NCBI GenBank assembly: GCA_038040455.1
Contig: JBBPIH010000006.1
Coordinates: 47,176-111,175 of the forward strand
Direction of reading: 5' to 3'
Source of the DNA: Acidobacteriota bacterium
Lineage (GTDB): Bacteria; Acidobacteriota; Blastocatellia; UBA7656
DNA: 64,000 nucleotides
Numbering within the stretch: position 1 is the stretch's first letter; each line of letters begins with the position of its first letter. The notes under the pieces were generated by a model. The model had not been told where the DNA came from, did no database searches, and saw only the letters and a list, made by a program, of their open reading frames with translations. Positions 7,605 to 55,118 of this stretch are shown here, piece after piece. The translations under genes and the position numbers were made by a program.

Positions 7605-10250
7605 TCATTCGCAGCGCAACGCAACCATCGGGTCGACGCGCGACGCTCGACGTGCCGGAACAAAACAAGCAGCCAACGCCACGAGGACCAGCAGCAATGG
7701 AACTCCAGTGAAGACGACCGGATCGGTCGGACTGACCTCGAATAGCAGGCTTGCCATCGCTCGTGTTAGAACGAGAGCGCCACCAGCTCCGATTGCAATG
7801 CCGGCCGCGATGAGCAGCATACCTTCTCGTAGAACCAGACGAAGCAGAACACGCGGTTGTGCCCCGAGCGCCAGTCGGATGCCAAATTCATTCTTCCGGC
7901 TCCCGACATAGAGTGACATTGTGCCGTAGATCCCTACTGCTGCGAGGAGCAAAGCCAAAACCGAGAAGGAGGTCAGCAGCAGATTCATCAACCGCTGGCT
8001 ATTGAGCGTTCGACCGATGACATCGTCCATGGATCTGATCGAATACACCGGGATGTCGGGATCCAACCCGGACACAGCGGCCCTGACTGCACCGATGGTC
8101 GAGTTTGGAGGGCCGTCGGTTCTAATAACAAGCTTAGCCAGCACCGTCGGCGATTGTGTGAGTGGAGCATAGATGTGAGGCTGCAGCTTCTCCGCCAGGT
8201 CGCCGTGTTTTATTCCGCCAACCACCCCCACTATCGTCATCCATTGCATATCACCAGTGGTCTCGACTCTTTTTCCCAGAGCGTCGCCGTCCGGCCAATA
8301 CATTCGGGCCAGTGTTTCATCTACTATCGCTACCGGTTGCGAGTCGCTTTTGTCCGATTCCAAGAAATCTCTTCCGCGCAGCAAAGGGATTCCCATTGCC
8401 TGAAGGTTTCCTGGCGTCATCGCCAGTAGCTGAGCTTGTACTCCTTCATCACCGGTCCCCGGTTCGTGTCCCTCCACGATAAAGTTGTCAGTGTTGTCAT
8501 CGCCGACAAACGGAATACCCGTGGTGAGCCCCGCCGCGCGAACCCCCGGCAGGCTGCCCAGTCGATCGAGCAGACTCTGGTAGAACTGTAGCGATTGTTC
8601 TGGCTTTGGATATTTGCGAGCCGGAAGAGCGAGGGACATTGTCAGCAGCTTCTCCGGGTTAAATCCGAGATCAACGGACTGCAGACGTTGAAAGCTCATC
8701 AGCAGCAATCCCGCGCCGATCAGCAACACAAACGAGAGTGCGAACTGGGCAGTCACAAGCACGCTATTTGATCGGCGGCTTGAAGTGCCGCCGCGTCCTC
8801 CTTCGTGCATCGCCGCAACCATCCCCATGCGATAGGCTCGCAGCGCAGGCATCATCCCAAACAGCAGCCCGGTCAGCACGGCGAGGCCGGCCGTGAACGC
8901 CAGCACGCGTCCGTCGACCGTCACCACTTCAATTCTCGGTATTCCGGCCGTGGGCATCCTGTCGAGCATTCGCACGCCGAGCCAGGCCAGCATCACGCCG
9001 CCTGCTGCGCCGATGAACGCGAGCACCAGGCTCTCGGTCAGGAGTTGCCTGGCGACGCGAGACGGCGTCGCGCCGAGCGCGAACCGAACGGCAATTTCTC
9101 TGACCCGCGAAGTGGCCCGCGCCAACAGCAAGTTCGCGACATTGGCGCAAGCGATTAACAGCACCAGTCCTACTGCACACAGCAAGATGAGCAGAGGCTT
9201 TTGGGTAGATCCGACCATCGCTTGCTTCAGCGGCGTGACTATGGTCTTCAGGGCAGAGCCCTGATCGAGCGGTACTCTGCTTTCGCTTATGTCGGGATGC
9301 TGGCGAGCGTAGTCCCAAATCACTGAAGTAGTTTCCGCCTCTGCCTCTGACGGTGATAGACCTGCCCCAAGCCGCCCTATCGCTCTCAGGAAGTAGGGGG
9401 CGGTTCTGGTTGGATTCAGCGCGAGTGGAATCCAGATCTCGGTTTCCGGCCGAGGAAAGCTGAAGCCCGCGGGCATAACGCCGACCACCTCGATCGCGGT
9501 GCTGTTCAGGTTCAAGGACCGGCCGACTATGTTGGGATCGCCGGCAAACCGCCGCTGCCAAAAACCAAAGCTGATAACGCAGACGCCATTGTTGCCGGGC
9601 GTATCCTCGCCGGGACGAAAAGTTCGTCCGAGGACCGGTGGAAGACCGACCACCTTGAAGAAATCGGCGCTGACATTGCCGATGGAAACGCGTTCCGGGT
9701 CACTATCTCCAGTAAGATTCGCGCCGCTGGTAGAATAAGCGGCCACGGCTTCAAGCGACTGTGTGTTGTCACGCAATGCCGCGAAACTCGCCTGCGAAAG
9801 ACTCCAGGCGTCCAGTCCGAGTTGCCGTTGCGATTGCACCACCCTCACCAGGCGATCGGGCTGCTCATATGGGAGGGGGCGCAGGAGAATACCGTCAACC
9901 AGACTGAAGATCGCGGTATTCACGCCGATCCCAAGCGCGAGAGTGATCACAACGATTGCGGTGAAGCCCGGATTCTTTCGAAGCATCCGCAGCGCATAGC
10001 GCGCGTCCAGCCATACCTGCTCGATCGTTGCTCCCGATCGTACATCCCTCACTTGCTCTTTTACCTGATCGACTCCTCCAATCTCGATTCGCGCTGCTCG
10101 CCGTGCTGCTTCTGCACTCATCCCTCCGTCGACCTTCTCTTCGATGAGCATCGCAAGATGCGCGCTCATTTCTTCATCGAGCTCGCGTTCGACGTGATCT
10201 TTGTGAAACAAGTTCGATAACAGACTTCGAAGGCGATAGAACAACGACAT
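7605..10250 (-). CDS. ADOP-family permease, long form (881 aa; MacB_PCD + FtsX, duplicated 4-TM modules)
   Basis: C-terminal ...[11 protein letters not shown] signature. The N-terminal ~75-aa extension ([16 protein letters not shown]...[11 protein letters not shown]) precedes the conserved [31 protein letters not shown]1. Confidence 0.9.
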
Positions 10251-10284
10251 AATGAACTCCCATGACGAGCCTGGTTAGGTTGTT

Positions 10285-10302
10285 CAACCTGCGCGCAGGT
10301 TG
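10285..10302. repeat. perfect 18-bp palindrome caacctgcgcgcaggttg
   Basis: Read directly. Lies between the ADOP start (10250) and the PD40 gene stop (10357). Confidence 0.7.
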
Positions 10303-10356
10303 CTGGCACAAAACGTCAGCGTTGCCGGTCGCGGCTTCCATCGAGGAATTGCCTCT

Positions 10357-11355
10357 TCATTTCCCGAGGTTTAATACAGCGATATCTATCTGGTAGATGT
10401 CCCCTAAACCGTTGCGCGGGCTTCGTAATCTGTTCATTAGCTCTTTATAGTTGAGCCGTTTCTCCAGTGGTTTGTCCGCAAAACCTCTCGCGCTTGTCCA
10501 GAAAAAATATTTGCCGTCCGGCGAGATTGCTGGCGAATATTCATTGCCGCTTGAATTGATCTTGTCGCCAAGATTGGCAGGCTTCGTCCAAGTACCATTA
10601 CGGTTGTAGCTCATATAGAGGTCGAGGCCTCCGCGCCCGTCCGCCCTCCCGCCTGTCATAAAAATCAGGAAACTCTCATCCGGCGCGATGAGCGGCTCAA
10701 ATTCATTGAACTGTGTGTTGATTGCATCACCCAGATTCTCCGCTTCGGTGTACTTGCCGTTGACCAGACGCGAACGGTAGATGTCCGTTCGACCTTTTCC
10801 ACCTTCGCGATCAGATCCGAAATAAATCGTGCCGTTAGCTGAAACGGTCGGATACCATTCGCTGCCTGCGCTATTGATAGGAGCACCCACATTCTTCGGC
10901 CCACTCCACCCGCCGTCAGTTTTCTCCATCACCCAAATATCCAAATCTGGCGTTGTTTTGCCCTCGACAGGACGGTTCGAGATGAAGTAGAACCGCGAGC
11001 CATCAGACGTGATAAACGGATCAGCATCGGAGTATTGACCCGAAAAAGGCGCTATTTCCGGTGTGCGCCATGTTCCTTTCTCGAAGCGCGAGACGAGAAT
11101 CGTCGACAGACTAAAACTTGGTGTGCTGCGTACGAAGTAAAGCGTTTTGCCATCGGTAGTGAAAGCCGGATGCGAATCAAAGTCTCCCGTGGAGACGATG
11201 CCGTCGGCGAAGATTGCCGGCTCGCTCAGAGACTTGCCGGAAGCGTAAGGATGCTTCGTTCGATCAATGTTCTGCGCGGCCAGGCTATGACCAGAGCTGC
11301 CCGGCCAGCAAAGTAGTAAAGTAGTGATGACAATTGAATTTAAATGTTTGTTCAT
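10357..11355 (-). CDS. secreted WD40-like (PD40 / TolB-type) beta-propeller repeat protein
   Basis: Signal peptide. Repeated PD40 units (FSPDG / YFxSxR motifs: TTDGKTLYFVRS, SANGTIYFGSDREGGKGRTDIYRS, APDESFLIFMTGG...DLYMS, SPDGKYFFWTSAR). Confidence 0.8.
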   Translation of the reverse strand: MNKHLNSIVITTLLLCWPGSSGHSLAAQNIDRTKHPYASGKSLSEPAIFADGIVSTGDFDSHPAFTTDGKTLYFVRSTPSFSLSTILVSRFEKGTWRTPEIAPFSGQYSDADPFITSDGSRFYFISNRPVEGKTTPDLDIWVMEKTDGGWSGPKNVGAPINSAGSEWYPTVSANGTIYFGSDREGGKGRTDIYRSRLVNGKYTEAENLGDAINTQFNEFEPLIAPDESFLIFMTGGRADGRGGLDLYMSYNRNGTWTKPANLGDKINSSGNEYSPAISPDGKYFFWTSARGFADKPLEKRLNYKELMNRLRSPRNGLGDIYQIDIAVLNLGK

Positions 11356-45562: not shown

Positions 45563-47977
45563 CTACTCGTAGCGCAGCGCGATCATTGGATCGACCTTCG
45601 TCGCTCGCCGCGCCGGAAGATAACAAGCCAGCAGCGCAACTCCGAACAGGAGCGTTGAAACGCCGACGAAGGTCAGCGGATCAGCACCGCTCACGTTGTA
45701 GAGTAGTGTCCCGAGAAACCGAGTCAGGCCCAGCGCAGCTACGAGTCCGCATGCTAACCCTACGGCAACCATCCTTAGACCCTCGCCGATTACCATGCTC
45801 AAGATCTGCGCGGGGTTCGCCCCGAGCGCGATTCGCACGCCGATTTCATGCGTGCGCTGCGCGGTCGTAAAGCTGAGCAACCCATAAACCCCGATGCCCG
45901 CCAGAGCTAACGCAAGCACGGCGAACGATCCGAGCAACAACAGATTGAAACGCCGCTGGCTGATCGAGCGATCGACCAGTTGCTCAATCGTCGCAATGCT
46001 CGAGAAGGTTTGGTTGCGGTTCACCTCGCGAATTTTTTCCTTCACGGCCGGCAAGAGACTGCCCGGATCATCCGCCGAGCGCACGACGTAAGTCATCCCG
46101 CCCGCCGGCAACTGCGCATATGGAACGAAGACTTCCGGACGTGGTTCGCTCTCAAAGCCATTAGGCCGGACATCGCCGGTCACACCCACGATCTCGGAAG
46201 TCAAAGTTCGACCGAGCGATTGAAAAGTGATCTTCTTACCTAACGGGTCTTCCACCGGCCAATGTCGCAGCGCCATCGCCTGGTTGATCAACACGACCGG
46301 GGCCGCGTCTTGTTTGTCGAACTGATTCAACGCGCGGCCGCGCAACAGCGGCACGCCGAGCGCGCGCAGATAGTCGGGCGTGATGTCGATCAGATAAGCC
46401 GTCGGGTCTTGTCCCGATGGAGAGGCGGGACGGCCTTCGACGCGGATTGTGACCGGCAGTGTCACTTGATTATCGTGAAAAGGCAGCGCCGAGGCGGCTC
46501 CAACGGACTGAACGCCGGCCAGCGATGTCAGCCGCTCGATCGTTTGCTCAACGAAAGCCACGCGCTGCTCCGGCGTGCGGTTTCTTCCGAGCTGCACTTC
46601 AAGCGTCAAAGCGCGGTCGGTAACAAAGCCCGGATCGACGCGCAGCAACGCAACGAAGCTGCGCACCAGCAACCCCGCGCCGGCCAACAGCACCAACGCT
46701 AACGCGACTTCTGAAACGACCAGGACATTCCGAAAGCGTCGAGGTCCGCGCCCGGCGGTGGCGCCCCGGCCCTCTTCCTTGAGCATTGACTGGAGATCTG
46801 TCCGCGAGCTTTCCAGCGCCGGCGCCAGTCCGAAGATCAGCGCGGTCAAAACTGAAACGCCAAACGCGAACAAGAGCACGGGGCCGTTGAGACTTACTTG
46901 ATTGAGGCGAGGCAAGTTGGCAGGACTGAATGCGGCGATCAAGTCGATCAGCCACCCCGATAGTAGAACGCCGCCCGCGCCGCCTAAGAGTGCGAGCACC
47001 ACACTCTCGGCCAGCAACTGACGCAACAGACGGCCTCGACTGGCGCCGAGCGCCGAGCGAATCGCAAACTCGCGTGCGCGTTCCGTCGAGCGCGCAAGCA
47101 GCAGATTGGCGACATTGGCGCACGCAATCAACAAGACAAAACTTACCGCACCGAACAGGATCAACAACGCCGGCCGCACCTGTCCTACCACCGATTCACG
47201 CAACGGCACCGCGGTCGCGCCGACGTTCCCATTGGTTTGAGGATACACCTGCGCGAGTTGCGCTCCGATTGCTTGCATCTCAGCTTGCGCTTGCGCAACC
47301 GTGCTCTCGGCTTTCAATCGCCCGACGACTCTGATGTAACTTCCGCCTCGAATCCGAGCGTCGTTCTCGCGCGGCGGACGCGGCGCCCAGACTTCACGCT
47401 CCGGCGGATACTGAAACTCTGGCGGCATGATCCCAACCACCATGTGAGGCTGGCCATTGAGCACAAGTTTCTGCCCCACCAAACCCGGATCGCCGCCGAA
47501 GCGCCGCTGCCACAGCCCATAACCGAGCACGACAACCTGGGCCTGACCGGGCTGATATTCTTCGGGCAGGAACGTGCGGCCATACAATGCGGGCACGCCC
47601 AGAATGTCGAAGAACCCCGCGCTCACGACCCACGAGCGAAACGCTTCCGGCTCACCGCGATCGATCAAGCTGTGGCCGAATGGTTCCGCGGCAGCGATGG
47701 CTTCACAAGCGTTCACTCGATCGCGCCAATCGAGGAAATTGGCTGGTGAGGTTTCTTCGCGTTCGACTCCGCTCTTCAGATTGGTCTGCCACAGCGTGAC
47801 TACGCGCGCCTCATCTCGGTAGGGCAACCGCCGCAACAGCACGCCGTTGACGACGCTAAAGATGGCAGTCGTCGCGCCAATGCCGAGCGCGAGTGTCAGC
47901 ACGGCAACCGCGGTGAACCCGGGTCTCTTCAGAAGCGCCCGAACGCTGAATCGCAAGTCTTGAAACAGAGTATCCAT
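45563..47977 (-). CDS. ADOP-family permease (804 aa)
   Basis: MDTLFQDLRFSVRALLKRPGFT...; C-terminal [15 protein letters not shown]. Confidence 0.9.
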   Translation of the reverse strand: MDTLFQDLRFSVRALLKRPGFTAVAVLTLALGIGATTAIFSVVNGVLLRRLPYRDEARVVTLWQTNLKSGVEREETSPANFLDWRDRVNACEAIAAAEPFGHSLIDRGEPEAFRSWVVSAGFFDILGVPALYGRTFLPEEYQPGQAQVVVLGYGLWQRRFGGDPGLVGQKLVLNGQPHMVVGIMPPEFQYPPEREVWAPRPPRENDARIRGGSYIRVVGRLKAESTVAQAQAEMQAIGAQLAQVYPQTNGNVGATAVPLRESVVGQVRPALLILFGAVSFVLLIACANVANLLLARSTERAREFAIRSALGASRGRLLRQLLAESVVLALLGGAGGVLLSGWLIDLIAAFSPANLPRLNQVSLNGPVLLFAFGVSVLTALIFGLAPALESSRTDLQSMLKEEGRGATAGRGPRRFRNVLVVSEVALALVLLAGAGLLVRSFVALLRVDPGFVTDRALTLEVQLGRNRTPEQRVAFVEQTIERLTSLAGVQSVGAASALPFHDNQVTLPVTIRVEGRPASPSGQDPTAYLIDITPDYLRALGVPLLRGRALNQFDKQDAAPVVLINQAMALRHWPVEDPLGKKITFQSLGRTLTSEIVGVTGDVRPNGFESEPRPEVFVPYAQLPAGGMTYVVRSADDPGSLLPAVKEKIREVNRNQTFSSIATIEQLVDRSISQRRFNLLLLGSFAVLALALAGIGVYGLLSFTTAQRTHEIGVRIALGANPAQILSMVIGEGLRMVAVGLACGLVAALGLTRFLGTLLYNVSGADPLTFVGVSTLLFGVALLACYLPARRATKVDPMIALRYE

Positions 47978-48653: not shown

Positions 48654-51110
48654 TCACTCGTACCTGAGCGCGACCATCGGATCGACCCTCGCTGCCCGTC
48701 GCGCGGGCACAAAGCAAGCTAACAGACCGACCACGGTCAACCCGGTCCCGACCATCACAAACGTAAGCGGATCGGTTGCGCTCACTTCAAACAGCAGGCT
48801 CGCCATCACGCGAGTCAACAGCAATGCGCCGGTCAACCCTACAGCCAGGCCAACGACCGTCATCCTCAATCCCTCTCCTACGACCATCGCCAGCACGTTT
48901 CGAGTCGTGGCGCCAAGCGCCACCCGCACGCCGATCTCCTGGGTTCGCTGCGCGACCGAGTAAGCCATCACGCCGTAGATCCCAATCGCAGCCAGTAACA
49001 ACGCGATCACCGAAAATGCTCCCAGCAACAGGGAAAGGAAACGCGGTCTAACCAGCGAATCAGCGACTATGTCGCTCATCGTTTGCAGTTGAAAGATAGG
49101 CACGCTCGGATCCAGCTCGCTAACAACTGAGCGAATTCCCGACGCAACTGTCGCCGCCGAGGCGCCTTCCGTTCGCACTACGAAACTCATGCGTGTGCTG
49201 ACTCCGAAGGCGGCCGTCTGAGGCTGAAGGAAATAGAGTTCGGTCCCCCCAGGCTTGTCTACGCCCAGGTTCTTGGTGTCTTCGACTAAGCCGACTACGG
49301 TGAACCATACCGGCGGAGTTTGGAACCCGGGGTTCACGCGCCGTCCTATTGGGCTTCCTTGCCAGAATCGTCGCGCCATCGCTTGATTGATCACCATAAC
49401 CTTCTGGGCGTTGTCGTTGCGGTCGGAACTCTCGAATGTTCGGCCTTCGAGCGTGCGGATGCCCATCGTCTTGAAGTAGCCTTCGTTAACGGTATTCCAG
49501 TAGTCGACGTTTTCGGCCGGTCCGTCGGGCGTTCCCTGATAGTCCTCAATGTCGGTGTCGTTAGCGTTGATAGGACGCAGCGGCGGCAGTCCGGAGGCCA
49601 CAGAAGCAGACTTGACTCCGGGCAGCGCGGTCAATCGTTCCTCAAGTTGGCTCGCAAAACGCATTCGGTCCGGGGCTTGGTATTTTGACGCAGGCAATTG
49701 AAGACTGAACGCCGTAACCCCTCGCGGGTCGAAGCCGGCGTCGACCTGGCTGAGCTTCCAGAACGCTCGAATCATCAGACCCGATCCAACGACTGGGATC
49801 ACCGCAAGCGCGATCTCGGCGATAACCAGCGTCTTTCTAAGTCTGTGACTTCCCCCACCGCCGGATGTTCTTTGTCCTGAGCCACGCAGAGTTGTTGCCA
49901 GATCCCGATCGCGCATCTGCATGAGCGGCGCCATCGCAAAGACGATAATCGAAAGAATCGATACGCCGAGCGTGAAGGCCAGAACCGTCGGATCGATCCC
50001 GACCTCGGCGGTGCGCGGGATGCTGTCGGGCGCCGCGGCCATGACCAGTCCCAGCCCTACTTTAGCGAGGACTATCCCAGCTATTACCCCGAGCACGACG
50101 AGGATCATGCCCTCCGCCAGAAACTGTCTGAGCAATCTGTTTCGGCCGGCGCCCAACGCCAAGCGTATCGAGAATTCGCGCCGTCTTGCTTCGGCGCGCG
50201 CCAACAAAAGGTTGGCGACGTTAACGCAAGCGATAAGCAGCACAAACGCAACTGCGCCCAGCAGCATGAGGACCGCCGGGCGCGCCGCGCCCACGACGTC
50301 TTCGTGCAGCGGCACCATCAATATTGGGTGCCCATCGGGACCGGGCAGGTGTTGAGCCCGATTCGCACTCTTCCAACCGGCCATCAGCGAATCGATCTCC
50401 GATCGCGCCTGCTCTACCTTGACGTTGGGTTTGAGCCTGCCAACGACATAGAGGAAGTGTCCACCGCGGTTGCCGGGATTTGCCGGATCGAGCTGAAGAG
50501 GCAACCACACCTCGGCTGGATCGTTGCTGCCGGGAGGAAAAACGAAACCGGGCGGCATCACGCCGACAACGGTGGTTGGCTGCGAGTTTATCTGAATCTG
50601 TTTTCCGACGATGTCGGCTTCTTTGCCGAAAGCGCGGCGCCATAGTCCATCGGAGATCAGCGCGGATTGAGGTCCGCCGTTGCGATCTTCTTCGGGTGTG
50701 AAGTTGCGGCCGATGGCTGGTTGCACAGCGAGCGTGTCGATCAATCCGCGAGTGACGATCGCGGCGGTGACTCTAACCGGCTCGTCGGTGCTGGTAGCGA
50801 CGTTCCTGCCGGTGGTAGTCCACGCGCCGATGCTCTCCCAGGAGTCGGCCTCGTTTTGAATGTCGAGATACTCGGGCGCGGACATCCAGAACTTCTTCAG
50901 GTTCATGGTTGGGAACTCGGTATAGACTCGCACGAGCTTGCCGGGCTCACGGTAAGGCAACGGCCGCAGCAGCACGGCGTTCACCACGCTAAAGATCGCG
51001 GTGTTCGCGCCAATGCCGAGAGCCAGAGTGACGACAGCGACCGCGGCGAACCCGGGTTTGTGCAACAGCATTCGCAGTCCGTATCGCAAGTCTTGCAGTA
51101 AAGTTTGCAT
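48654..51110 (-). CDS. ADOP-family permease (start taken at [26 protein letters not shown]; GGAGG 6 nt upstream; the ORF track extends to 51173)
   Basis: Conserved N-terminus. C-terminal [15 protein letters not shown]. Confidence 0.9.
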
Positions 51111-51513
51111 CGGTCCTCCCGAAGGTCTGAGCACCAAATCCCCATGAACGTTGCGCGCTACAGGTGGGCACACGAGCGCAATTCTGCCTGATTACCTGAG
51201 GGGAGAGTAACCAACTAGCGTGCCAGCGGAGTGATCTCAGATTTGAGCGCCGATTACGAGCGTTGATCCCGACAGGCCATTTCGGGAGCGTTGTTAAGTT
51301 CAGGTTTAATTGAGCTTGAGAGGTTTGCGTTGGAGACTGGCTTCGCTCACCGTGCCTTGGTGCGTGATTCTGCAATACATAATCTGAAATCTGAAATTCG
51401 CCTGGTGTCCGTCTACAGGAATGGCTTTCCCAGAATCGCCCATAGTGGCACACAGAGCGGATGCAGTCCGCTCGCCCCGCAGGTTCAACCCGAGGGGCAA
51501 GCGGATCGTCGAG

Positions 51514-53031
51514 TTAACTACTCACAGCGGTCTGAACGTCCAGTGACTTTCGAAGTTCAGATGTCAGACTCTCGGAAACGGTTCCTGAGCTTGAGACTCG
51601 AGAATGAAAAGTACACGTCTGACCACAGTCGAACTTTATCCTAACTAGTTTTGCAATGTACCCAGACTTTCGAGGTAGCTGCTTTACTTCTTTGTTTTGC
51701 ACTACGCCGCGCCCAAGCGCAGGATGGATCACCGGCGATCCTGAATCCAGTGCCTCCCAGAATAGCTCGTGCAGGCCGATCTCCCAAGCATACAAGCTCA
51801 TTAGCGCGCCCTGGCGAGTCATATTGGAGCTGGATGAGAACGCATCTGCAGTGTCACCGAGGAGAGTTAGTCTCAGCGCCATCGCAGTTCTGGTGAAGTA
51901 ATCCCTATCTTGAAGTTTAGCAAGCCAGTTGCCGGGAACGGCACTCATACCCATATACGCCCCAAACAGCCCGCCTATGAAATACCCGATAGTGTCCGTG
52001 TCACTTCCTATTGTGTTCACTGCCTCAATCACCGCCGTCTCCGGTTCGTCGAGGTATTTGAGAAACATATAAACTGCCGTCAAAACCGTAGCCAGCCCAG
52101 ATCCTTTTGTTCTCCGATCGAGCGCACCAACTCGACGGTAGTAATCCTTATGGTCGATTTCTAGGTGAGAGGAGATTTGGTCGAGATACTCCACAGCTTC
52201 TTCGTTTGTTTCCTTGATTGAATCCTTCAGGGTCTTCCCCGAGGAGGAACGCCGATCCCAGTCGGCACGCCAAACTGACGCCACTTCCCAGCCAGCAAGG
52301 CTGTTCGTCCATCCATGCACGATGTCTTTCAAGTAATCCGTGACTTCACCTGCAGAAACATGCCGTTTGGTAAGAAGAAACCGCAGTAAGCACCCGTAGA
52401 GGATAGACCCGAGTATGGCCCTCGGGTGACCATGCGTCACGATTGCGTTTGCAAAACAGTCCCTTATCAGCTTCTCATTATTGTTGATGTTAACAATCGC
52501 CAAAGGCAGGACACGCATGGCCGCGCCGTTGGCTCCAGCCTCTTCATAAAGAAGTGCTGGGCCTTCACGCGGACATATCCGATAGAAATTGGTACGCCAA
52601 TCTATACCTTTCTTAGAGATAATATGGCGCGCGGCAGCTTTGATTGAGCGTCCGCCCCCCTTCTCGTAAAGGATCCACGAGGGGAGTTCTAAATAGGCAA
52701 ACTTCTCCACGTCAAAACATCCAGCATCGTCAATACAGCGAGCCACCGAGAGCGTTAGCTGCGTGTCATCGGAGTATTCTCCCTCGCCAATCTGCTCCTC
52801 ATAGCCCCAGAACCGACCCCCAACAAACTTCTTCCAAGGGACAAAATCAGTTACCCAGTTCTTACCGAATCTGTCCCTCACAGATGCTGGATAGCGACCA
52901 AACTCAGTAGGCCAACCCAACGCGTCACCGATTGCGCTAAACGCTAGCGCTCCTTCGATGCGCTCAACAGAGGGAATGCCGTTGTAGCTATCTGCACCGA
53001 TATGAGACTGCAAATTCAATTCAGTTTTCAT
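51514..53031 (-). CDS. ADP-ribosylglycohydrolase (ARH / DraG-like) with a ~95-aa C-terminal extension; putative antitoxin or immunity partner of the upstream DarT-like gene (start at MKTELNLQ; the ORF track extends to 53469)
   Basis: ARH motifs in order: GALAFSAIGDALGWPTEF, YSDDTQLTL, GANGAAMRVLPLA, THGHPRAI, GSDTDTIGYFIGGLFGAYMG. It begins 17 nt after the stop of the DarT-like CDS, with a GGTGG/GAGG RBS in the gap. Confidence 0.85.
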   Translation of the reverse strand: MKTELNLQSHIGADSYNGIPSVERIEGALAFSAIGDALGWPTEFGRYPASVRDRFGKNWVTDFVPWKKFVGGRFWGYEEQIGEGEYSDDTQLTLSVARCIDDAGCFDVEKFAYLELPSWILYEKGGGRSIKAAARHIISKKGIDWRTNFYRICPREGPALLYEEAGANGAAMRVLPLAIVNINNNEKLIRDCFANAIVTHGHPRAILGSILYGCLLRFLLTKRHVSAGEVTDYLKDIVHGWTNSLAGWEVASVWRADWDRRSSSGKTLKDSIKETNEEAVEYLDQISSHLEIDHKDYYRRVGALDRRTKGSGLATVLTAVYMFLKYLDEPETAVIEAVNTIGSDTDTIGYFIGGLFGAYMGMSAVPGNWLAKLQDRDYFTRTAMALRLTLLGDTADAFSSSSNMTRQGALMSLYAWEIGLHELFWEALDSGSPVIHPALGRGVVQNKEVKQLPRKSGYIAKLVRIKFDCGQTCTFHSRVSSSGTVSESLTSELRKSLDVQTAVSS

Positions 53032-53048
53032 TTTTGAACCACCTCTCA

Positions 53049-54068
53049 CTATTCGATGCTGAACGGGGCAATGAATTGCCGTATGTCTTCTACCTGGCGC
53101 ATGTCGTTGATATAACAGCCCACCTGGTACTCGCCGGATGCGAGTTGCCTGGCATCTAACGCTACCCAGGCGCGGCCATTGTCTGTGGTGCTGGCTATCT
53201 CGAGCACCCTCTCTCCTAAGACTGCGCCATTCGCCGTCTTCCAAGCAAACCGCATTCGAACGCCAGTTTGCACAGCAGCCGTTACCACCACTGTGACGGT
53301 GGATATGACGCCTCGTCGAAAGACCCTCTCGTCCCTGAGCACATTCGCGCGAATACTGCTTCGACTCACGGGTGCTCCAGTAAGGAGATGCTCTTTGATG
53401 TATGAGTATCGACCGGGGAAAAAGGCTTGGCTGTTCACGGCGAATGGCGGATGGGATTTGCCCGCGCACAATCTAGTCGCTTCCTCTAAGCTCGAGCGGC
53501 TTCGGAACAGAACGCCCTCGATATCCGCTCCGGGAACGAAATGAGGTACGAGCACCTCGGCTTGCTTTCGCTTTTTTCGCTCTTGGTTTGTGTAGGCAAA
53601 CGGATCTTGCACAGCACCAAAGTCCACCAGCTGTAAACCCTCTAGGCTCCTATCGCGTCGCTCGTTGTTGTCCGTGGCATTTCGATCCGTGAAAACGACG
53701 CCTTCCCGCAGCGCCACACCCAAGTTTACGATCAGGTAGCATAAGTGTTGTTCGGCTTCCTTCCACCATGCCATTGGATGTTTGAGGCACCAACTGAGCG
53801 ACACCTTATCCCAGTTGTCATGCGCGACGTCCAAGTCCTTTGAGAGTTGGTTGCCCCCGGTTTTAACTCTTTCGATCCAACCCTTTCGCTCAAGCCACTC
53901 TTTGCTTCGTAGGCCTTTCGCTTCGAGTATCAAAGGAAGATTATCGATATCGGTAAAGTGATATAAACATCCAATGCGTTGTCGACGCAGTATCAGCTCC
54001 ATCCTCGCGGCTTGATGATCAATACTCATGAATCTGCGACAAGATATCACAACTAGTCGCGCCAACAA
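53049..54068 (-). CDS. DarT-like (DUF4433) ADP-ribosyltransferase with a ~120-aa C-terminal beta-rich extension; putative toxin (likely start at Met 54029 or 54002)
   Basis: N-terminal LYHFTDIDNLPLILEAKGL matches the DarT hallmark (I/L)YH(I/F)TH(I/R)DNLxxIL. VVFTDRNATD matches the FVFTDSHA box. KQAEVLVPHFVP matches the catalytic-Glu box (QAExLV) at about residue 170, where DarT places it. Confidence 0.7.
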   Translation of the reverse strand: MLARLVVISCRRFMSIDHQAARMELILRRQRIGCLYHFTDIDNLPLILEAKGLRSKEWLERKGWIERVKTGGNQLSKDLDVAHDNWDKVSLSWCLKHPMAWWKEAEQHLCYLIVNLGVALREGVVFTDRNATDNNERRDRSLEGLQLVDFGAVQDPFAYTNQERKKRKQAEVLVPHFVPGADIEGVLFRSRSSLEEATRLCAGKSHPPFAVNSQAFFPGRYSYIKEHLLTGAPVSRSSIRANVLRDERVFRRGVISTVTVVVTAAVQTGVRMRFAWKTANGAVLGERVLEIASTTDNGRAWVALDARQLASGEYQVGCYINDMRQVEDIRQFIAPFSIE

Positions 54069-54251
54069 GAACGGTCACGAAGTTACGGGCACCCCTCGCA
54101 CTCGAGGCTGGCGTGCACAAGTGCAATGCTAGCAGGACGGCCCTCTAGGTTTCCAAGACAGAATTGCCCAAAACTGAAAATCGGATCCAGGGACAGACGG
54201 ATAGGCAACCCATATTGGACTTGAGCGAAGTTTCGGTCTCTTGGGTCCTGC

Positions 54252-54381
54252 TATTGGAGCCGCAATGCTATAATGCGCGTGAGATCCTGGGCTCGCACAA
54301 AGGAGCCACATGAGCACAACGCTTAATCCTGAGATTGCGGCCCTCCGGGAAAAGGTTGAAGGGTACGGCAAGGAACTCGCC
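54252..54381. repeat. direct repeat copy 1 (~128 bp; promoter + RBS + first 24 codons of the small gene)
   Basis: About 88% identical to 56641-56768 by reading. Confidence 0.7.
54265..54273 (+). promoter_or_regulatory. extended -10 promoter element TGcTATAAT for the small gene at 54310
   Basis: Perfect TATAAT at 54268-54273 with an upstream TG. AAGGAG RBS 6 nt before the ATG. The same arrangement (TGcTATGAT) recurs at 56654-56662. Confidence 0.45.
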
Positions 54382-54624
54382 GAAATGCGTGGTACTGTCA
54401 ATCAACTCAATAAAATCGTTAGCGCCTCCGTTCGTCAGTCCATCTGGCAACTGATTGCGCTGATCGTTAGTCTCTGCTTGACGATCTCTGGCGGATTGGC
54501 TTACCAGGCCAGCGTGATTGACAAGCGATTCGAGCAGATCGAAAAACGCATCGAGCAATCCGAGAAGAACATCACCGCACGTTTTGAAGACCTCAAACAG
54601 GAAGTCCGTGCTCAGCGCAAATGA
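54310..54624 (+). CDS. small membrane protein with coiled-coil segments (104 aa)
   Basis: MSTTLNPEIAALREKVEGYGKELAEMRGTVNQLNK, a TM helix (IWQLIALIVSLCLTISGGLAY), then a C-terminal coiled coil. Strong promoter and RBS. Divergent from the DarT-like gene. Confidence 0.55.
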   Translation: MSTTLNPEIAALREKVEGYGKELAEMRGTVNQLNKIVSASVRQSIWQLIALIVSLCLTISGGLAYQASVIDKRFEQIEKRIEQSEKNITARFEDLKQEVRAQRK

Positions 54625-54660
54625 TCCGGGGAAGTTTACAAGCTCAGCTACAGCGCTTTA

Positions 54661-54966
54661 CTAGCTCAACATCCGAGAGAACGAAGGGTCGTTCGTATCT
54701 GAGCAAAACGATGATGCGGCCAGTGCGCGCCTCTCAATCTTGGTGGTGAGCGCCTCGGTGGCGAGATTGATTGCCTCTCCGATTGCATCCCGGCTGATGC
54801 TGTTCCGATAAGCTGCGACAATCCAGTTCCAGTCTTTGCCTTGACCTGCGTAGTAGAGGACGTCTTTGACGAGGACGCGCGTGCCCTTAAACGTCAAATC
54901 TCCTCCGCAGATCTCTGGATCGGAAACTATGTACTCGCCGAACTCTTTCCGTCTCCTGGCAGCCAT
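54661..54966 (-). CDS. DUF433 domain protein (putative antitoxin-like); no PIN or DUF5615 partner adjacent
   Basis: EYIVSDPEICGGDLTFKGTRVLVKDVLYYAGQGKDWNWIVAAYRNSISRDAIGEAINLA matches the DUF433 core (ICGGKPxIKGTRIPVxxIL...). Confidence 0.6.
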   Translation of the reverse strand: MAARRRKEFGEYIVSDPEICGGDLTFKGTRVLVKDVLYYAGQGKDWNWIVAAYRNSISRDAIGEAINLATEALTTKIERRALAASSFCSDTNDPSFSRMLS

Positions 54967-55118
54967 GATGTTTCTCCCAACTCATTAAGGACATGATGAG
55001 TCTAACATCGGGCGACCGAGCCAAACAACGATTTAGATCGCTACAAAAATAGACGCGGTCTTCGCCTACAGGTATGGCACTCCCATAATCGCGCGGACCG
55101 GTTTGTTAGCGGCGGTCT

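Follow-up and report, generated by a model that had tools for sequence, protein, structure and literature searches.

A DarT-family ADP-ribosyltransferase encoded next to an ADP-ribosylglycohydrolase in an Acidobacteriota contig: a candidate two-gene toxin-antitoxin module

The 64,000-nucleotide stretch analysed here (the window; Acidobacteriota bacterium, assembly GCA_038040455.1, contig JBBPIH010000006.1, positions 47,176 to 111,175) carries on its reverse strand a gene for a DarT-family ADP-ribosyltransferase (ART), followed directly by one for a protein of the ADP-ribosylglycohydrolase (ARH/DraG) superfamily. The question raised by this locus is what an ARH does in the position where DarT genes are otherwise followed by a DarG antitoxin. 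In surveys and reviews to early 2026 the partners of DarT are macrodomain and NADAR proteins only, and the 2022 survey from the Aravind group likewise has only DarT-Macro and DarT-NADAR pairs (PMC9503650). Macrodomain erasers act on thymine, NADAR erasers on guanine and, outside DarTG, also on cytosine. The initial annotation of the locus proposed a DarT-fold enzyme with an ARH in place of DarG, a reading that is supported both by profile matches and by the conservation of the two genes as neighbours. The pair is probably a self-contained DarTG-like toxin-antitoxin module, independent of a helicase and with an antitoxin of the type named 'DarG3' in the recently published DarHTG system.

The two proteins and their pairing

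With the Pfam DarT profile (PF14487, DUF4433), whose cut-off is 22.5 bits, the product of the first gene scores 88 bits (E=9.1e-25); the match spans residues 23-199 and profile positions 1-196 of 201, and the PADLOC DarT profile also matches the protein (E=1.2e-21). Its AlphaFold2 model, made from the family alignment, is confident (pLDDT 92.5, pTM 0.90) and has the DarT/PARP-like ART fold. The DarT hallmarks that had been pointed out in this protein, including a catalytic Glu at about residue 170, are kept across the family (alignments A1/A2): LYHFT with H24, VFTDxNA with N117, and QAExLxP with E158, which is residue 171 of the longer open reading frame (ORF). E158 (QAEVLVP) aligns with the catalytic E160 of Thermus DarT and E152 of E. 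coli DarT1 and is invariant in the family, as are the NAD-binding H24 and M86, the equivalent of M78. A basic KRKQAE stretch precedes the catalytic Glu, as in Thermus DarT. The longest form of the ORF begins at a TTG at 54068, the start originally assigned, and ends at the TAG codon 53049-53051; that TTG is indeed the longest-ORF start, but the N-termini of 16 homologues (alignment A1) favour the ATG at 54029 (MSIDHQAARM...).

The second protein belongs just as clearly to its family, matching Pfam ADP_ribosyl_GH (PF03747) with 165.8 bits against a cut-off of 26.2 (E=2.2e-48, residues 27-366), so that both of the profile matches anticipated for the pair are obtained. Its gene runs from the ATG at 53031 to a stop codon at 51514-51516; the mechanical ORF list gives a 651-aa form, which is a read-through from upstream, and the 505-aa form was taken instead. 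The AlphaFold2 model, again made from the family alignment (pLDDT 90.8, pTM 0.92), has the all-helical ARH fold, and its fold-search scores are highest for MJ1187 (36.8), ARH3 (36.4) and ARH1 (34.1), followed by a Listeria ART-ARH immunity protein (33.4), Tri1 (32.0) and DraG (31.0), with ARH3 and DraG, the two proposed at the outset for superposition, among the matches. The Asp/Thr motifs of the binuclear metal site, all of which had been recognised in the initial annotation, are conserved in the family: GDALGWPTEF, YSDDTQ, GANGAAMR, THGHPR and GSDTDT vary little or not at all in 120 homologues, and no change occurs at D88, D89, H200, H202, D344 or D346 in 120 sequences (alignment A4). An active hydrolase would be expected from this conservation. 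The NCBIfam equivalogs are far from their cut-offs (DraG TIGR02662, 81.3 vs 337; Tri1 NF041672, 41.7 vs 490), and no PADLOC profile matches the protein, nor is there a match for DarG. PADLOC-DB v2 thus has a model that matches the window DarT and none that matches the ARH, and searches that require a DarG would, judging from these profile matches, probably miss DarT-ARH pairs.

A protein 100% identical to the window ARH (P0022) is annotated at NCBI in an 'Acidobacteriota bacterium' metagenome-assembled genome (MAG), which agrees with the genes that flank the pair in the window. About one quarter of the closest ARH homologues (P0025, P0030, P0048, P0085; alignment A3) are longer, at about 600-610 aa, and have past the barrel domain an additional conserved C-terminal stretch of about 100 aa (A3 columns ~520-646) that is missing from the window protein.

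The two genes are co-oriented and separated by exactly 17 nt (TGAGAGGTGGTTCAAAA), with a Shine-Dalgarno-like GAGGTGG 7 nt ahead of the ARH ATG, and the tight operon with a ribosome-binding site in its gap that was described at the outset is therefore confirmed. The coordinates are collected in Table 1.

Table 1. Positions in the window of the DarT-ARH pair, its domains and the surrounding island
Feature	Position	Strand	Remarks
DarT-family ADP-ribosyltransferase gene	53049..54029	-	326 aa from ATG 54029; ORF list, PF14487, PADLOC, AlphaFold model
ART (DarT) catalytic domain, residues ~18-204	53418..53978	-	key residues H24, S79, M86, N117, catalytic E158
DarT C-terminal Ig-like beta-sandwich, residues ~206-326	53052..53414	-	without Pfam family; fast-evolving
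Intergenic spacer, 17 nt, Shine-Dalgarno-like GAGGTGG	53032..53048	-	sequence read directly
ARH/DraG-superfamily gene, 505 aa, predicted antitoxin/eraser	51514..53031	-	PF03747, AlphaFold model
ARH catalytic domain, residues ~23-385	51877..52965	-	metal-site motifs all intact
ARH C-terminal domain, residues ~406-505	51517..51816	-	helix, SH3/Tudor-like beta-barrel, two helices
Lower-GC island: DarT-ARH pair, DUF433 gene, small ORFs	51200..55100	.	GC profile

The pairing of these two genes is not due to chance, and all 10 look-ups of close relatives by protein identity found it again. When the neighbourhoods of relatives were looked up, by exact protein identity, all six DarT relatives (E<1e-30) had a PF03747 gene of 494-514 aa 1-17 nt downstream, split in two pieces in one of them (L003), and all three ARH relatives examined had directly upstream a DarT of 321-333 aa that aligns full-length with that of the window at 30-41% identity (alignment A2). 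For two DarTs that are related only distantly (E=1e-12 and 1e-8) the partners are different ones. In eight other loci the same two genes lie 1-20 nt apart. A scan of metagenomes with alignment A2 gave 80 loci, in which an ORF and HMM survey found 71 distinct DarTs; the ARH gene follows immediately in 54 of the 55 distinct loci that have at least 300 nt of downstream sequence, and in the sole exception the DarT gene is frameshifted. The GTDB genome scan, which depended on a peptide pattern and whose result is not a prevalence estimate, found three loci in Chloroflexia MAGs, with the pair present in both that were checked, the third being the contig of L003. The initial annotation had made its case depend on matches to both profiles and on conserved adjacency in other genomes, and both are found.

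The family at first seemed tiny, at 21 proteins by a single-sequence DarT search, an impression that was abandoned when the ARH search and the neighbourhoods showed that this word-index search had missed most members: the ARH search alone had at least 120 proteins as matches, at 45-58% identity and mostly over 94-99% of the query. The named lineages are Acidobacteriota, Chloroflexia (Chloroflexota), Thermodesulfovibrio (Nitrospirota), Thermodesulfobacteriota and a 'Candidatus Helarchaeota' MAG. The last is represented by a 427-aa ARH-family member (P0139, 49% identity, 'Candidatus Helarchaeota archaeon'); the module may thus occur in Asgard archaea too, or the bin may be contaminated.

The state of the genes also bears on how the two belong together. 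Both are intact in 39 of 49 distinct complete loci, DarT is truncated or frameshifted beside an intact ARH in 7, the ARH is broken beside an intact DarT in 1, and both are broken in 2, counts that are small and to which metagenome assembly errors may contribute. DarT is broken more often than the ARH, the pattern that a toxin-antitoxin pair predicts. The ARH is also the more conserved of the two proteins and often outlasts the decay of DarT, as might be expected as well if it were not the antitoxin of DarT but an eraser of ADP-ribosylation by phages or competitors, with DarT acting independently or the adjacency without meaning; stand-alone ARG-centred systems that remove an invader's ADP-ribose have been predicted by Aravind and colleagues (PMC9503650). 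This alternative appears very improbable given that the genes are adjacent, co-oriented and 1-20 nt apart in the 54 of 55 informative loci, that a DarT stands upstream of every top ARH homologue examined, that the C-terminal barrel of the ARH is largely restricted to ARH-type proteins of about 470-520 aa, and that an antitoxin outliving its toxin is normal in toxin-antitoxin decay.

One of the seven loci with a broken DarT and an intact ARH, in a Chloroflexia MAG (L010, CAVZQK010000080.1, 6549-8954), has an IS256-family-like transposase ORF directly upstream of a DarT that lacks the N-terminal LYHFT segment, followed by an intact ARH, and looks like a natural toxin knock-out. In L003 and L012 both DarT and the ARH are broken into pieces.

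Relation to known ADP-ribosylation systems

The closest published precedent is E. coli DarHTG (Liu-DS3; Liu et al., Nucleic Acids Res, April 2026, PMC13069673), which consists of a UvrD-like helicase (DarH), a DarT, and the antitoxin DarG3, ARH3-like by structure prediction, with the ARH3 structure as the paper's reference 60. This system defends against T4, T5, T7 and SSL_2009a; its defence is abolished by mutating either the active site of DarT or the helicase's ATP-binding residues, and no mutant of DarG3 could be constructed (PMC13069673). The window pair shares with it an ARH-fold gene that directly follows a DarT-family ART and replaces the macrodomain or NADAR DarG, and the window ARH is homologous to that of the DarHTG-type operon (26% identity, E=2e-41). 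This precedent, in which an ARH3-like protein stands in for DarG and active-site mutation of DarT ends defence, counts in favour of a toxin-antitoxin reading of the window pair. The differences are nevertheless considerable. The upstream helicase essential to DarHTG has no counterpart adjoining the window pair, and the DarHTG DarT is short (~221 aa), without an Ig-like domain; the window DarT has no BLASTP similarity to the Salmonella one (E=2.4), and the DarHTG-type DarTs cluster together and with DarT1, whereas that of the window clusters with DarT2. The DarHTG ARH, at about 560 aa, has a C-terminal region that is not detectably related to the window barrel (hhalign probability 0.4%), and the suggestion that the enterobacterial DarHTG ARH has this barrel domain was accordingly dropped as unsupported.

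A helicase-DarT-ARH operon is present on a Salmonella plasmid (L099), with a helicase of 465 aa containing UvrD_C, a DarT of 221 aa and an ARH of 561 aa, and 21 of 5,426 complete E. coli genomes have it with 100% identity; we infer that this Salmonella/E. coli operon is the published DarHTG. The same architecture is found on Ralstonia, Streptomyces and Cereibacter plasmids. In L099, L102, L103 and the E. coli loci H20-H25 the UvrD-like helicase is labelled at NCBI as '3'-5' exonuclease' and the DarT as 'ssDNA thymidine ADP-ribosyltransferase family protein', and both names could mislead surveys of helicase-DarT-ARH systems.

A third arrangement is provided by plasmid pC052_C of Nostoc sp. C052 (L100, NZ_CP040275.1, 84346-95620), where an SF1 helicase, a 531-aa DarT and a 505-aa ARH are encoded directly upstream of pglZ and brxL, within a BREX-1 cluster. 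Its ARH is the best plasmid match to that of the window (35.6% identity over 87% of the query) and has a C-terminal barrel of the window type (hhalign 96%, E=2.9e-9). It differs from the window pair in the Upf1/DNA2-like helicase upstream (AAA_11/AAA_12) and in its DarT, which has an N-terminal extension of about 340 aa and no C-terminal Ig-like domain. The annotation of this locus is generic throughout.

ARH antitoxins therefore serve at least two clades of DarT, with or without a helicase. The initial annotation had called a DarT guarded by an ARH unstudied; since the 2026 DarHTG paper (PMC13069673) that is no longer quite so for the ARH-type antitoxin, and the novelty of the pair is lowered to that extent. 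For the helicase-free two-gene form no description was found in the literature searched, which did not take in the first neighbourhood analysis of DarT (De Souza and Aravind 2012). Still new are the different DarT clade, two unannotated domains, the target chemistry, and the question of an ARH erasing base-linked ADP-ribose. With just two genes, whose products have intact active sites and were modelled confidently, and with dozens of variants in nature, the pair is also a simpler experimental entry than the three-gene DarHTG.

The DarTG2 systems of Thermus, M. tuberculosis and EPEC resemble the window pair in their toxin-first operon with a short gap, in the conserved catalytic Glu and preceding Met, and in an antitoxin with an extra C-terminal domain, which in DarG2 is a DarT-binding domain (PMC11257639). 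They differ in that their antitoxin has a macrodomain and not an ARH fold and in that DarT2 has no Ig-like C-terminal domain. The guanine-N2-modifying DarTG1 differs in turn by its NADAR partner; no macrodomain or NADAR antitoxin was met beside the window DarT, the downstream gene matching ADP_ribosyl_GH alone. Other known pairings of a transferase with an ARH-type eraser, namely Tre1/Tri1 of the Serratia type VI secretion system, the Listeria Lmo0067 pair and DraT/DraG, have transferases that are not of the DarT fold and that modify protein arginine, and the window locus has no secretion-system context.

Target and role of the pair

The residues of the window DarT were mapped onto DarT1 and DarT2, using the functional residues of Schuller et al. 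2023 (PMC11543638), by alignment alone and without superposed coordinates. In sequence and overall fold the protein is nearer to DarT2. Its base contact, however, is an invariant Asn117 as in DarT1 (N104) and not the His of the thymine-modifying DarT2 (H119); the residue after the NAD-binding His is Phe25, as in DarT1 (F18), where DarT2 has Ile; and the place of the Tyr of H-Y-E (Y71 in DarT2) is taken by Ser79, as in DarT1 (S63), with Ser, Thr or Asn across the family. No conserved Arg aligns with the proton-abstracting R51 of DarT2 or R52 of DarT1. Its place is occupied by an invariant motif of the family's own, GGNxLSxxLDxxxxNWDK, and although D67 is invariant near the position of the R52/D54 pair of DarT1, that pair is not recognisably conserved. 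As judged from the alignment, the active site looks like a mosaic of DarT1 and DarT2 features, and the target base cannot be read from it.

The genomic context of the pair is varied. Pfam families assigned to 129 flanking ORFs from 27 loci showed no third gene in common. Co-orientation, a minimal gap and conservation of the pair in different neighbourhoods are the layout of a type II-like toxin-antitoxin module. DNA methylase and restriction genes (N6_N4_Mtase, Eco57I, N6_Mtase, ResIII, HsdM/S) stand beside the pair most often, with AAA_21/AAA_15 ATPases and HerA also frequent and, in one Chloroflexia lineage, purine-biosynthesis genes; single loci adjoin type III restriction-modification (R-M), AbiEi/AbiEii or HigBA-like genes, an integrase with ArdC and NurA/HerA, or ParA/ParB. 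R-M methylases or restriction subunits, AbiE, AAA_21/OLD-like ATPases or HerA/NurA occur in about one third of the 27 loci, a fraction given without a statistical background. No helicase family recurs beside the pair in these loci, ResIII appearing in three as part of R-M. In the window itself the GC content falls to 0.51-0.54 across about 51-55 kb from 0.58-0.61 on either flank, in agreement with the lower-GC island reported originally. Patchy spread, low GC, defence neighbours and decay of DarT fit an accessory, horizontally moving and costly module.

According to the toxin-antitoxin model that we favour, the DarT-fold enzyme would use NAD+ to put ADP-ribose on a cellular or phage macromolecule, its most probable substrate being a base in single-stranded DNA (ssDNA), where the modification would block replication; within this model DNA has a slight edge as the target. 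The ARH, which would be co-transcribed with DarT and is probably translationally coupled to it, would strip the ADP-ribose in a metal-dependent reaction and so keep the uninfected cell alive, acting by enzymatic means as an antitoxin like DarG3, and its conserved C-terminal barrel may restrain DarT or guide the ARH to its substrate. Phage infection or another stress would shift the balance towards DarT. The module probably works by abortive infection, and within the same model the chances that its role is anti-phage defence seem about even.

Several points weigh against this model. The ARH-like enzymes tested so far remove only phosphate-linked ADP-ribose from nucleic acids and leave that linked to G, U or T bases (PMC11833690, PMC13036486). 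The window DarT, at 59.2 bits, stays below the cut-off of 150 for the NCBIfam toxin_DarT equivalog (NF048013), and with Ser for Y71, Asn for H119 and no conserved R51/R52 Arg it may not be taken to act on DNA bases as DarT1 or DarT2 do. No defence gene, integrase or tRNA adjoins the pair in the window flanks, and this DarT was found in none of 2.9 million IMG/VR viral contigs. In one Chloroflexia lineage (L001/L002, L003/L012) the pair lies at a syntenic position (~8000-10500 in each locus), directly after purL, purC, purF, purD, purE and purN, and such a fixed chromosomal site looks less like a mobile defence island. Finally, toxicity of the DarT, its reversal by the ARH, the DNA target, the role in defence and those of the extra domains are all things that we infer.

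The chemical points among these would be accommodated if DarT modified protein (arginine, serine or another residue) or RNA, with the ARH reversing this modification, after the pattern of DraT/DraG, Tre1/Tri1 or the Listeria pair, in a toxin-antitoxin system of different chemistry. The ARH erasers characterised to date act on Arg- or Ser-linked, O-acetyl- or phosphate-linked ADP-ribose, and the best structural matches of the window ARH include ARH3, ARH1, Tri1, DraG and the Listeria immunity protein; the thymine-specific H119 and Y71, moreover, are missing from the window DarT. A protein or RNA target is still rather unlikely in our estimation, since the protein, like Thermus DarT, has kept both the M78 equivalent and the basic KRKQAE residues that lead up to the catalytic Glu, has at its base contact the residue of the guanine-specific DarT1, and belongs with enzymes all of which, as far as characterised to date, modify ssDNA; the DNA helicase that is part of DarHTG points to DNA as well. 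The strict coupling of DarT to an ARH would mean either that base-linked ADP-ribose has a third eraser fold or that this DarT has switched its target class. A bolder set of proposals, which we consider unlikely, is that the window ARH does erase base-linked ADP-ribose from nucleic acid, which would make it the first enzyme of the ARH superfamily to do so, that DarT writes a base or linkage other than thymine-N3 or guanine-N2, that the barrel tethers the ARH to RNA polymerase (RNAP) or ssDNA and could thereby replace the helicase of DarHTG, and that the Ig-like domain senses phage proteins.

The points of context invite a different alternative, in which the pair is a non-lethal regulatory writer and eraser that tunes replication or transcription and is not an abortive-infection module. 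The syntenic site after the purine-biosynthesis operon in Chloroflexia, window neighbours without mobile-element or defence genes, and the absence of DarT from the viral contigs are all compatible with it, as are a fold-level hint in the predicted ARH barrel, which faintly resembles the RNAP-binding Tudor-like domains of CarD/Mfd and UvrD, and the reported growth-control role of M. tuberculosis DarTG2 (PMC12170906). The pair is, on the other hand, rare and patchy across Acidobacteriota, Chloroflexota, Nitrospirota, Thermodesulfobacteriota and an Asgard archaeal MAG; it lies in the window in a lower-GC island; R-M, AbiE, integrase and plasmid-partition genes are frequent neighbours elsewhere; and DarT has been pseudogenised repeatedly. 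A regulatory role is accordingly given a little less weight than a protein or RNA target, and the toxin-antitoxin model remains the preferred one. A tblastn search of phage records with the ARH gave one weak match, in an uncultured jumbo phage (27% identity), and there is no evidence that the module is carried by phages.

C-terminal domains and other genes of the region

Both proteins had been credited with additional C-terminal domains, and structure prediction confirms them. In the AlphaFold models the last part of DarT (residues ~206-326) is an all-beta Ig-like sandwich and that of the ARH (residues ~406-505) a helix, a 4-5-stranded SH3/Tudor-like barrel and two helices. A Pfam search gave no family for either, CarD_TRCF_RID matching the barrel in only 3 of 25 members. 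The two evolve very differently. The sandwich has a mean pairwise identity of 25%, against 48% for the ART domain, while the mildly basic barrel (net charge +2.8), at 63% as compared with 55% in the ARH domain, is conserved more highly than any other part of the module. Such unequal rates argue against a simple one-to-one interface between sandwich and barrel. The barrel probably binds something conserved, be it the ART domain, ssDNA or a host protein, and the sandwich probably something variable, or nothing specific.

In a full HMMER scan of 1.84 billion representatives the barrel domain had 61 matches, most of them at the C-terminus of proteins of about 470-520 aa; the others were shorter entries, plus three outliers that are long and repetitive. 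Sequence-level homology of the barrel to the C-terminal domain of UvrD was looked for and not supported, with an hhalign probability of 5% on HPxLGxGxI and an empty profile search of the PDB; what remains is a hint at the level of the fold. A zinc site formed by H436, C469, C473 and H476 was likewise given up as a strict motif, C469 being Ser in several members.

The flanks of the pair in the window encode two FtsX/MacB-type permeases, a lumazine-binding-like protein, a DUF433 protein, a PQQ beta-propeller and a hydrolase. A tRNA scan of the window found none and no integrase was found near the pair; the repeats met in a search for boundaries of the low-GC island are short and at chance level, and a promoter and terminator scan gave counts no higher than expected from shuffling. 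The permeases (804 and 839 aa) are tandem MacB_PCD/FtsX paralogues at 45563-47977 and 48654-51173, both on the reverse strand, with the lumazine-binding-like gene between them, and resemble the duplicated orphan permeases typical of Acidobacteria, in keeping with the taxonomic assignment. The DUF433 protein (101 aa, Pfam E=1e-9) is encoded at 54661-54966 on the reverse strand, in the same island and some 600 nt upstream of DarT. Proteins with DUF433 usually accompany small PIN/DUF5615 toxins as antitoxin-like partners; no ORF next to this gene in the window looked like a convincing partner.

One of the more distant loci (L007, 8001-10917) encodes a 568-aa DarT-domain protein followed by a DUF4407 protein, which is not a known eraser, in the company of an SLFN-like helicase, a type I restriction subunit and an OLD-like AAA_21/RloB pair, and may represent another DarT arrangement.

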